DNA of 64,000 bases from an uncultured Opitutales bacterium. Lineage in GTDB: Bacteria > Verrucomicrobiota > Verrucomicrobiia > Opitutales > CAYWEO01. The notes below the pieces were generated by a model, which saw only the letters and a list, made by a program, of their open reading frames with translations, ran no database searches and was not told where the DNA came from. The stretch lies in NCBI GenBank assembly GCA_964457855.1, contig CAYWEO010000005.1, forward strand, positions 487 through 64,486. Reading direction: 5' to 3'. This document shows positions 20,722 through 22,488 of this stretch, piece after piece. Made by a program: the position numbers and the translations under genes. Numbering within the stretch: position 1 is the stretch's first letter; every line of letters begins with the position of its first letter.

Positions 20722-21804
20722 TTATTTTTCTTTTTTATTTTCGATTTTTTCGATCTTCTCTTCCTTGTTTTCTATTTTCTCAATTTTTTCGTCCACCTTT
20801 TCCGGTTCTAATTTAAACATGGGCATGTAAGGAGGTTTGACGTCATCCCAAGCGTAATATTTGATTTCGTTGTTTAGCTTTTGCTTTTTTATGATGTTAG
20901 ACTGAGAATTCAACTTAGGCAGTTCGTATTGATCGAAAGAAACGACGATCTGGTCTATTCTTGCATTCAGCTTTTTCTCGTTTAGTATATTATTGAGAGC
21001 GGCTTTCGCATTGACCAAAGAAGGACCGCAACGAATACACGTAGGAATTGAAGTATGAATATGAAGCGTGAGTAATTTTGTGGTCTTTTCGTTTGATGGA
21101 AATTTGAAGTCATCAATAACGGTTTCCAGCCTAGTTGTATTTTGATTATCAGCAGCTGGTAGAGTCAGATGTTCAATGAGTTGTTGCTCGGAGTGCCAAT
21201 GGTGTCCTTTTAAGTAATTGTACTGTACTTCAAGATCATTGACGGCACCTTTCAAATCTTTTATGTGCGTGTGATTTATTTTTGTACCCAATGGAGCGAT
21301 TTCTGCTATTTTCTTAACATCATTGCCCGTTGCTTGTTTCAAATCTTCCCAATCAGACCACTCCCCGCATCTTTGTTTAAAGTCATTGTTATTTTCCTCA
21401 TCACAGCGCAGTGCAAAAAATTTACCCGCATGTTGAATCATTTCTTCTGCCGTTCGCACATTGGAATAAAGCATATATTTTACCTTGTTGAATTCAGTAG
21501 TGAGCTTATCACTGCTACACGTCCTACTTAAGAAACAACGACGCAGAGATACATTTTTCCCTGTCTTTTGACAAGAAAATACGGCGATGACCTTGTTGCA
21601 TGGTTTTTTGTTTTCATCGATAATTGCACAACATGCATTACACAGGCGTTGGTTGATTTCCCTAATGTCTCTAGGAACTGCATTCGTCTTTACGTAACCG
21701 CAGAACGATTCCCACGCTCCCAACTGGACAAAGGGAAGCAGCAAACAGTACAAAGTCGTAATGAAAAATTTAGACATACCAAACCGGACGAGAAGAGAGC
21801 TCAT
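20722..21804 (-). CDS. secreted Cys-rich protein with deaminase-like HxE...CxxC signature and K/E tail
   Basis: Hydrophobic N-terminus. Motif ..GHHWHSEQQLIEHL..(about 40 aa)..LLTLHIHTSIPTCIRCGPSL. Tail ..EKVDEKIEKIENKEEKIEKIENKKEK. Confidence 0.6.
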   Translation of the reverse strand: MSSLLVRFGMSKFFITTLYCLLLPFVQLGAWESFCGYVKTNAVPRDIREINQRLCNACCAIIDENKKPCNKVIAVFSCQKTGKNVSLRRCFLSRTCSSDKLTTEFNKVKYMLYSNVRTAEEMIQHAGKFFALRCDEENNNDFKQRCGEWSDWEDLKQATGNDVKKIAEIAPLGTKINHTHIKDLKGAVNDLEVQYNYLKGHHWHSEQQLIEHLTLPAADNQNTTRLETVIDDFKFPSNEKTTKLLTLHIHTSIPTCIRCGPSLVNAKAALNNILNEKKLNARIDQIVVSFDQYELPKLNSQSNIIKKQKLNNEIKYYAWDDVKPPYMPMFKLEPEKVDEKIEKIENKEEKIEKIENKKEK

Positions 21805-21810
21805 AGAAAT

Positions 21811-22488
21811 TTAATTTTCAAGGAAAATATCACCATCCTTATAGTCATCGACAGGAGGGTCTTTTATAATAATTTTCCCTTCAAATCCTGCATTAAAGAT
21901 CAGTTCTTGAAGCTGACTACAAATATCCGGCTTCAATTCCGCACTACTAAATCCGGATGTTTTGTTTTCTTTCTCAACATTGGGTGGAATGAGCAGAACG
22001 TTATACCTCAAGTCTACTTTTGGAAAGTTCGCTGCACCACATTTCTTTGCAAATTCAAGCAAGCAATTAAAACCCTCTGGAGTAATTCCATTACCAGTGA
22101 AGTCAATAGAAGCGAATTTCGTGATATCGACCTTATCGAGTAAGTACTTCAAATCCTCATTCCAAATGCTACAAACTTGAAGATTTAATTCCAATTTTAC
22201 ATTTGAAGAATTGTTATACTTTTCGATTTCTTTATTGATCTTCTTTACAACGTCCGGCAAAGGCGTCCCATAATCCTTAGGCGCTTCGTCGTTTTCGGAA
22301 TCGGAATAGGCTTCGTGCAGTCTCTGCATGCGTAAATCCAATATCTTTTCCTTCGTGAAATCGAGCGTGACAATGTCTTCTCCACCAGAACCTTTCCAAC
22401 TGTATACACTCATACCCCACGTCGTGTTGGCTAAGCTCAACCCCAGCCCTATCAAGCCCATTAGAGCAATTACTTTTCTCATTTTCAT
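21811..22488 (-). CDS. secreted RNI-like LRR protein, 6 nt upstream of the deaminase-like gene
   Basis: Signal peptide MKMRKVIALMGLIGLGLSLANTTWG|MS, then ..IDFTGNGITPEGFNCLLEFAKKCGAANFPKVDLRYN.. Confidence 0.6.
   Translation of the reverse strand: MKMRKVIALMGLIGLGLSLANTTWGMSVYSWKGSGGEDIVTLDFTKEKILDLRMQRLHEAYSDSENDEAPKDYGTPLPDVVKKINKEIEKYNNSSNVKLELNLQVCSIWNEDLKYLLDKVDITKFASIDFTGNGITPEGFNCLLEFAKKCGAANFPKVDLRYNVLLIPPNVEKENKTSGFSSAELKPDICSQLQELIFNAGFEGKIIIKDPPVDDYKDGDIFLEN

Follow-up and report, generated by a model that had tools for sequence, protein, structure and literature searches.

Two adjoining genes on the minus strand of a 64,000-nucleotide stretch of contig CAYWEO010000005.1 (the window) encode a protein pair, ProtA and ProtB, that is best read as lineage-specific, exported and effector-like, ProtB probably carrying a hydrolytic site centred on zinc. 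The original prediction, made from the letters of the window alone, had described the pair as an operon of a ribonuclease-inhibitor-like (RNI-like) leucine-rich repeat (LRR) protein followed by a secreted protein carrying the HxE...CxxC signature of zinc-dependent deaminases. The signature is conserved and rare by chance, whereas the cytidine deaminase (CDA) fold that it would imply finds no independent support. A short C-terminal tail which ProtB has in common with unrelated secreted proteins of the window is a firmer feature than the deaminase idea and, as far as the literature searched shows, an undescribed one. The explanation as a whole (an exported pair, a zinc site in ProtB and ProtA as its partner) is offered tentatively, as a possibility that still falls short of being probable.

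A co-conserved and exported gene pair

The two open reading frames (ORFs; coordinates in Table 1) lie where the original prediction had placed them: ProtA, of 225 aa, is separated by 6 nt (21805-21810) between its stop codon and the ProtB ATG from ProtB, of 360 aa. Codon 10 of ProtB is a second in-frame ATG, which is the start chosen in the gene call P0001 (351 aa). The guanine-plus-cytosine (GC) content of the two genes is 0.384 and 0.391, against 0.47-0.50 in the adjoining genes. The AT-rich region of about 250 bp that had been claimed upstream measures 252 bp at a GC content of 0.286, and it holds a Shine-Dalgarno sequence and a candidate ProtA promoter, TTGAAG-16-TATAAG, which a consensus promoter scan did not list because the second hexamer is without the final T. 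The hairpins noted downstream are likewise present: the 159 bp between ProtB and the convergent orf630 hold three inverted repeats. These are not specific to the operon but genome-wide intergenic elements, since the same palindromes recur at scattered places in the window (families D3, D8 and D17; D3 has five copies, and the D17 copy at 61443 is identical to that at 20580). They are probably bidirectional terminators or elements resembling repetitive extragenic palindromes (REP-like). ProtA and ProtB behave as an operon and are read as a co-transcribed pair. Every detail of sequence in the original prediction proves to be right. A plus-strand ORF at 21568-22143 was set aside as spurious, the minus-strand frames being those kept at a second locus.

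That second locus, L001, is the only other place in the public protein collections (about 15 billion proteins) where the pair occurs in the same order. Homologues of ProtB were sought with a word index over 5.8 billion clusters and by exhaustive HMMER searches over 1.84 billion representatives, and the only relatives in these collections are P0001, which is identical apart from its shorter start, and P0002, which is 43% identical to ProtB overall (41-45% by the alignment used). The P0002 gene lies directly 3' of a gene whose product is 38% identical to ProtA (E 6e-38), and because P0002 adjoins a ProtA homologue in the same order the pair is conserved as a unit. Scans of genomes, metagenomes and viral contigs with N-terminal and motif-based patterns gave no further homologue, and tblastn against plasmids and phages gave none. 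Both loci are present in a single sequencing run, SRR12261224, and their NCBI contigs measure 64.5 and 68.4 kb.

The genes flanking the pair are ordinary chromosomal ones (rho, an M16 peptidase gene, pyrG, ddl, glmS, glgC, mcsA/mcsB/clpC and others). The Rho protein of the window is 60-67% identical to the Rho of many metagenome-assembled genomes of Opitutales/Puniceicoccaceae, with no nearer match found, and this identity points to an uncultured, fairly deep-branching Opitutales-like verrucomicrobium as the source. A homologue of orf630 follows rho in 65 of 80 related genomes, and at the rho locus ProtA, ProtB and the M16 gene occur in none of the 80. On the sequences searched, the ProtA/ProtB pair is limited to one uncultured Opitutales-like lineage of the Verrucomicrobiota.

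ProtA, ProtB and both homologues each contain one strongly hydrophobic 12-residue segment, which lies within the first 31 residues, and hydropathy reveals no other membrane-like segment in any of the four. In ProtA this segment reaches a 12-residue hydropathy of 2.57 and nothing comparable follows past residue 45. When ProtA is aligned with its homologue, conservation restarts at GMSV (predicted cleavage between TWG and MSV), and in the alignment of ProtB with P0002 it begins at WESFC (LGA, then WESFC); both restart points stand directly after a site of the A-x-G/A type, where the signal peptides are presumably cleaved. Since a single N-terminal hydrophobic segment is in each case followed by conservation that resumes after such a site, predicted Sec export of ProtA and ProtB is well supported; the original prediction had called ProtB secreted, and the same holds for ProtA.

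Conserved blocks of ProtB

Of the 13 cysteines of ProtB, 11 fall within residues 1-146, which bears out the Cys-rich N-terminal segment ascribed to it, and nine cysteines of the mature part are kept in P0002. The longest runs that are identical in ProtB and P0002 are KLLTLHIHTS (residues 243-252), CGPSLVNAK (259-267) and WHSEQQLIE (203-211), the last with nine invariant residues in a row including H204 and E206. The sequence WHSEQQLIEHL and the TCxxC block some 50 residues later, to which the original prediction had drawn attention, are therefore not only present but among the best conserved stretches; in this two-member comparison no part of ProtB is better conserved than the HSE and TCxxC blocks. 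Residues 244-263 read LLTLHIHTSIPTCIRCGPSL, and E206 and C256 are 50 residues apart. The two residues between C256 and C259 differ between the proteins (IR in one, HH in the other), as one would expect of metal ligands and not of a tuned redox pair.

The pattern H[ACS]E.{20,60}C..C arises in 25 of 5000 shuffled ProtB sequences (0.5%) and in one of 1223 background ORFs, and the same pattern together with its helix/strand context in none of either set. From these frequencies and the conservation we take the HSE...TCxxC signature to be real and to be the functional core of ProtB. In the model of ProtB, which is of low confidence, a helix covers residues 206-214 at the HSE block, and a strand at 243-251 is followed by a break at 257-259 and a helix at 260-276.

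A shared C-terminal tail in a lineage-specific secretome

The KIEKIENK-type tail seen earlier in ProtB was confirmed (it reads EKIEKIENKEEKIEKIENKKEK), and it is not confined to ProtB. Seven ORFs of the window, as well as P0002, end in a tail rich in Lys, Glu and Ile (KEIEIKK, KEVEIKK/KEIEINK, EEEIKK or KIEKIE), with the motif within the last 35 residues in every instance. The tail of P0002, IENKEIEIKK, is the tail core of an unrelated protein of the window (45586-46677). Among the genes the tails differ by synonymous codons, which shows a constraint at the protein level. All seven tail-bearing genes of the window combine low GC content with N-termini of the signal-peptide type, and the motif occurs in none of 2641 ORFs read from the related Opitutales genomes (80 genomes, 1.28 Mb); a literature search did not find it either. 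The tail is a candidate for a lineage-specific C-terminal tag. In being short, C-terminal and common to secreted proteins of a single organism that are otherwise unrelated, it resembles PEP-CTERM, the C-terminal domain (CTD) of type IX secretion system (T9SS) substrates and the E-block of Dot/Icm substrates. It differs from CTERM tags in having neither a hydrophobic helix nor an Arg cluster, from the T9SS CTD in not being a domain of about 80 residues, and from the Dot/Icm E-block of type IV secretion substrates in its co-occurrence with Sec signal peptides.

The N-termini of this secretome are shared as well. Near-identical signal peptides stand on otherwise unrelated low-GC genes, either of type 1 (MRTKLFKQTGIFCLALATALSAFGM) or of type 2 (MKIxSKLTKCALPVALLTAG..SASW), an [FWY]GM junction recurs among their products and is present in ProtA too, and the neighbouring secretome proteins are Cys-rich. 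Three tandem tail-bearing genes (42980-46677) encode a protein family with a profile match to human FBXL2 (E 2.6e-20), to FBXL17 and to the LRR domains of plant TIR1/COI1; its members have no recognisable F-box and are barely detected by the Pfam LRR models. By these matches they are secreted, cysteine-containing (CC) LRR proteins of the RNI-like superfamily, of eukaryote-like character. Because other members of the set are such FBXL2-like proteins, the set as a whole resembles a secretome of effectors or of proteins for host interaction.

Tandem paralogues in the window also share conserved intergenic modules (2916-3043, 4502-4620 and 32085-32205; 43859-44169, 45298-45585 and 46678-46773). 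In the type-1 family the module runs from a hairpin terminator (AAAACAGCAGTCGCGAGATTGCTGTTTTTTG) into TTGACA...TACAAT, and the LRR family has a distinct conserved 3' module. The minus-strand ORF at 30827-31012 is a truncated paralogue of which the signal peptide alone is left.

Is ProtB a deaminase?

The explanation that we favour would run as follows. ProtA and ProtB would be co-transcribed and exported by Sec, and ProtB would belong to a lineage-specific, low-GC set of 'cargo' proteins that carry both a signal peptide and a KEIEIKK-type tail. Three blocks of ProtB are invariant: H204-S-E206, where a helix would begin; a putative buried strand that closes with H248-x-H250; and T-C256-x-x-C259. 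Together they may form a single hydrolytic site centred on zinc, carried by a beta-alpha-beta unit of the cytidine-deaminase-like fold class. The zinc would be held by H204, C256 and C259, the proton would be shuttled by E206, and ProtB would then be a deaminase that has diverged strongly and gained inserts. ProtA, which is small, LRR-like and without a tail, would most likely bind to the exported ProtB and hold or inhibit it.

Several features are consistent with such a site. The CDA fold, with its 2134 sheet, consists of helix-1, a strand-1/2 hairpin, helix-2 with [HCD]xE, strand-3, helix-3 with CxxC, and strand-4 (Iyer et al. 2011, PMC3239186). At the level of the motif, H204-S-E206, which is invariant in both members, agrees with the [H/C/D]xE that opens helix-2; for the (P)CxxC that opens helix-3 behind strand-3 the candidate is T-C256-x-x-C259 behind the predicted strand at 243-251, where Gly-Pro and a helix break speak against it. 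In the same low-confidence model the order helix (HSE)...strand-CxxC-helix-strand-helix-strand fits helix-2, strand-3, helix-3, strand-4, helix-4 and strand-5. The closest likeness is to the toxin deaminases of the SCP1.201 (DddA) clade, whose helix-2 signature, [HD]xEx[KQ] (PMC3239186), is fitted by the HSEQQ of ProtB. Common to them and ProtB are H-x-E-x-Q where a helix begins, T-C-x-x-C behind a hydrophobic strand and a small putative catalytic unit; secretion by signal peptide alone also occurs among them. The HSEQQ and T-C-x-x-C of ProtB resemble HVEGQ and G-T-C-G-F-C of DddA, whose sequence is supported by its plasmid matches. Inserts beside helix-2 are frequent in toxin deaminase clades, and Sec-only ('T2SS', for type II secretion system) secretion is found in many of them (PMC3239186).

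Other results weigh against the deaminase reading or lend it no support. Pfam, NCBIfam, PHROGs and PADLOC, searched at E<=10 with both members and with the isolated C-terminal domain, yielded no deaminase or other family; the only weak matches were to zinc modules (the SIR2 Zn module at E 0.005 and the PriA Zn ribbon), below threshold and for P0002 only. Sequence (phmmer) and profile (hmmsearch) searches of PDB with ProtB returned nothing. The AlphaFold2 models reached a predicted local distance difference test (pLDDT) score of 36.9 for full-length ProtB and 45.8 for residues 172-335, and the matches that Foldseek drew from PDB were all generic alpha/beta ones (E>0.3), which carry no meaning because the models are too poor. 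The check that the original prediction had proposed, against families of the CDA fold, has accordingly produced no deaminase match, from poor models and a family of two. By hhalign, 12 references (eight deaminases, thioredoxin, DsbA, Rpn11 and AfJAMM) were aligned in 24 comparisons, none of which was significant. A mini-profile of DddA with Streptomyces and Treponema sequences, taken from the plasmid matches, scored 13.0 against 11.0 +/- 1.8 for a column-shuffle null, and 1.3 Mb of related loci yielded no deaminases from which a reference profile could be built.

The architecture of ProtB raises objections of its own. The 50 residues from E206 to C256 exceed the usual ~25-35 (~26 from Glu to the first Cys in the SCP1.201/DddA proteins), and C259 is directly followed by Gly-Pro, which would interrupt a helix-3 of the canonical kind; a helix break is predicted at 257-259. 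Where the strand-1/2 hairpin should stand, just ahead of HSE, the models, again of low confidence, place a long helix (178-199); the only hairpin-like segment, residues 71-92 (VIAVFSC-QKTGK-NVSLRRCFLS), would need an insert of about 110 residues to serve as strands 1 and 2. The invariant HxH at the strand end has no explanation in a deaminase model. Unlike the SCP1.201/DddA toxins, to which it has no detectable sequence or profile similarity, ProtB has no immunity gene (Imm1/Imm4-type or other) downstream, and its partner is upstream and itself exported.

With a family of two sequences every profile test has low power, and for this reason the negative profile and fold tests do not refute the deaminase call. 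That ProtB is a zinc hydrolase of the deaminase-like (c.97-type) class is a possibility to be held tentatively, and that it is an actual nucleic-acid or nucleoside deaminase is more doubtful still. The nearest known kinds are the secreted toxin deaminases and the eukaryote-like LRR effectors, with membership of a known family not established for the pair. If ProtB were an active deaminase, it would represent a clade without detectable sequence relatives that is compact and naturally secreted. DddA and SsdA are the raw material for base editors. A more ambitious version, in which ProtB founds a new, highly inserted clade of CDA-fold nucleic-acid deaminase effectors, the tag marks the secretome, FBXL2-like LRR proteins included, for a second step of delivery or retention towards a eukaryotic host, and ProtA is the dedicated periplasmic inhibitor or chaperone of ProtB, is improbable. 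If the tag is real, it would suggest that unrelated proteins with signal peptides pass through a sorting or secretion step not yet described, and that a verrucomicrobial group not known for one has a host-directed secretome. If neither the deaminase nor the tag holds, the genes would be one more lineage-specific orphan pair.

Alternative readings of ProtB

As doubtful as the actual deaminase, and ahead of the other alternatives, is a secreted binder without catalysis, in which CxxCG forms a structural zinc knuckle or a disulfide, the conserved blocks make up a surface for a ligand or host, and ProtA and ProtB assemble into an adhesin- or effector-like complex. CxxCG is a classic zinc-knuckle form, the sub-threshold Pfam matches of P0002 are all to zinc modules, the other tail-bearing proteins of the window are of the repeat or scaffold kind and not enzymes, and an enzyme family is not detectable. 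Against this, the invariant residues are mostly polar ones of the catalytic type (three His, two Glu, Ser, Thr, Gln, Asn and Lys) arranged as HxE and HxH, which would be unusual for a purely structural site.

The HxH that the deaminase model leaves over is what a JAB/JAMM-like metallohydrolase would account for. Such an enzyme, a peptidase or isopeptidase, would share the fold class of the deaminases with different chemistry: E206 would activate the water, H248-x-H250 would bind zinc, and C256 or C259 would replace the Asp ligand. JAB proteins bind their metal at the corresponding position of the fold (PMC3239186). As in these metalloproteases, a Glu lies 42 residues ahead of an HxH (~45 in AfJAMM); the HxH closes a predicted strand, and S262-x-x-N265 comes after it where a helix begins. 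The top hhalign score of the 12 references, itself non-significant, fell to AfJAMM in the HxH region, with P 0.011, a value that fails over 24 comparisons. The JAMM signature HxHx7SxxD departs from ProtB in its spacing (11 residues in place of 7, the Ser being 12 after H250) and in the Asp ligand, which is Asn265 in ProtB; CxxC is inserted, Pfam and profile searches give no JAB match, and the invariant H204 is left without a role. We consider this reading unlikely.

The chances are equally slim that ProtB is a redox-active, thioredoxin-like CxxC protein serving as a periplasmic thiol-disulfide oxidoreductase for the Cys-rich secretome. Strand-CxxC-helix-strand is also the N-terminal motif of thioredoxin, ProtB is exported with nine conserved mature cysteines, and its secretome neighbours are rich in Cys. 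The dipeptide within CxxC is not conserved, however, thioredoxin and DsbA families give no match, hhalign aligns the four CxxC residues alone, a cis-Pro and a beta-beta-alpha half are not evident, and the invariant WHSEQQLIE and HxH go unexplained.

Little probability is also given to an antibacterial toxin with periplasmic immunity, in which ProtB would hit a periplasmic target in competitors and exported ProtA would protect the producer. Export of both proteins is what immunity to toxins acting in the periplasm would call for, and the genes are tightly coupled and co-conserved, but their order is the opposite of the usual one, toxin first and immunity second (for example a DddA-like gene followed by Imm1), a delivery domain (RHS, PAAR, VgrG or CdiA) and a PADLOC or Pfam toxin match are lacking, the downstream neighbour is the convergent, conserved orf630, and the surrounding tail-bearing genes encode eukaryote-like LRR proteins. 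Readings of ProtB as an HExxH/HxxEH zincin, an M23/LAS enzyme (HxxxD...HxH), a 2-oxoglutarate (2OG) oxygenase (HxE...H), a clan-CD His/Cys protease or a permuted papain were discarded by eye, for a misfit in spacing or in conservation in P0002.

ProtA as the partner

The RNI-like LRR assignment of ProtA is a weaker part of the original prediction. Proteins of the RNI-like/CC type carry tandem repeats of 26-29 residues (LxxLxLxxN/CxL...); in ProtA about 2.5 LRR-like units (residues ~96-165) can be recognised by eye, and the best-conserved 15-residue window outside the signal peptide (111-125, 12 of 15 identical) falls within this block. ProtA matches no Pfam LRR model at E<=10 and nothing in PDB by sequence or profile, and neither ProtA nor its homologue matches a family in Pfam, NCBIfam, PHROGs or PADLOC. 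The reading is plausible because the window holds a secreted FBXL2-like LRR family, to whose repeats the ~2.5 units read alike in type; nevertheless, no relation to that family is detectable (hhalign against its LRR units gives a probability of 1.2%), the units are too few for a solenoid, and ProtA is without the K/E/I tail.

Genomic setting

Table 1. Coordinates of the gene pair, its elements and related features; positions refer to the window unless L001 is given.
Feature	Position	Strand	Description
ProtA	21811-22488	minus	exported; short LRR-like core of RI/CC type
ProtA signal-peptide-like N-terminus	22414-22488	minus	residues 1-25, MKMRKVIALMGLIGLGLSLANTTWG, predicted cleavage before M
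ProtA LRR-like block	21994-22203	minus	VKLELNLQVCSIWNEDLKYLLDKVDITKF / ASIDFTGNGITPEGFNCLLEFAKKCGAANF / PKVDLRYNVLL
AT-rich intergenic region	22489-22740	minus	5' of ProtA
Candidate promoter	TTGAAG 22548-22543, TATAAG 22526-22521	minus	16-nt spacer; hexamers read from sequence
Shine-Dalgarno GGAGG	22497-22493	minus	4 nt ahead of ProtA ATG
ProtB	20722-21804	minus	exported, Cys-rich; HSE / HxH / TCxxC blocks and K/E/I tail
ProtB signal-peptide-like N-terminus	21715-21804	minus	residues 1-30, ...LLLPFVQLGA then WESFC
Motif 1, WHSEQQLIE	21172-21198	minus	residues 203-211 (H204, E206)
Motif 2, KLLTLHIHTSIPTCIRCGPSLVNAK	21004-21078	minus	residues 243-267 (H248, H250, C256, C259)
ProtB K/E/I-rich tail	20725-20799	minus	residues 336-360, KVDEKIEKIENKEEKIEKIENKKEK
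Three inverted repeats	20580-20621, 20623-20652, 20646-20690		between ProtB and orf630, in gap 20563-20721
Tail-bearing ORFs	1428-2915(+), 3044-4501(+), 20722-21804(-), 32206-34050(-), 42980-43858(+), 44170-45297(+), 45586-46677(+)		tail motif
Tail-bearing P0002	L001 763-1860		tail motif
Genes with common signal peptides/[FWY]GM junction	1428, 3044, 31066-32076(-), 30827-31012(-), 42980, 44170, 45586, 57038-57991(-), 36419-37024(-), 21811-22488(-)		
Dispersed intergenic element	7946-8070, 25643-25769, 28713-28839, 34251-34337, 56556-56679, 58300-58384		six copies

The neighbour orf630 (18670-20562) encodes 630 aa without a Pfam match and with 46-54% identity to the rho-linked homologues in relatives (L004-L080). 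With the TTG start assigned to it, the gene runs 104 nt into rho, and because of this overlap the true start is probably a later one.

The window contains other low-GC islands of orphan secreted genes, each of which adjoins a stable RNA gene: tRNA-Ser (460-552), tRNA-Cys (14964-15038), tRNA-Met (34167-34240) and tmRNA (58437-58834). In this respect they are like integrated genomic islands; the island of ProtA and ProtB has no tRNA alongside.

Repeated elements are plentiful between the genes. The six copies of a dispersed intergenic element of ~85-125 nt are 60-87% identical and match no Rfam family at the gathering score. Perfect or near-perfect palindromes of the D families lie at gene ends (D3 at 14797, 20644, 28659, 34510 and 38455; the identical D17 pair at 20580 and 61443; D19 at 38488 and 46844, 99% identical) and look REP-like or terminator-like.

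An operon of mcsA-like (UVR), mcsB (ATP:guanido phosphotransferase) and clpC genes occupies 8344-12730 in this verrucomicrobial genome, an arrangement that is best known from Firmicutes.

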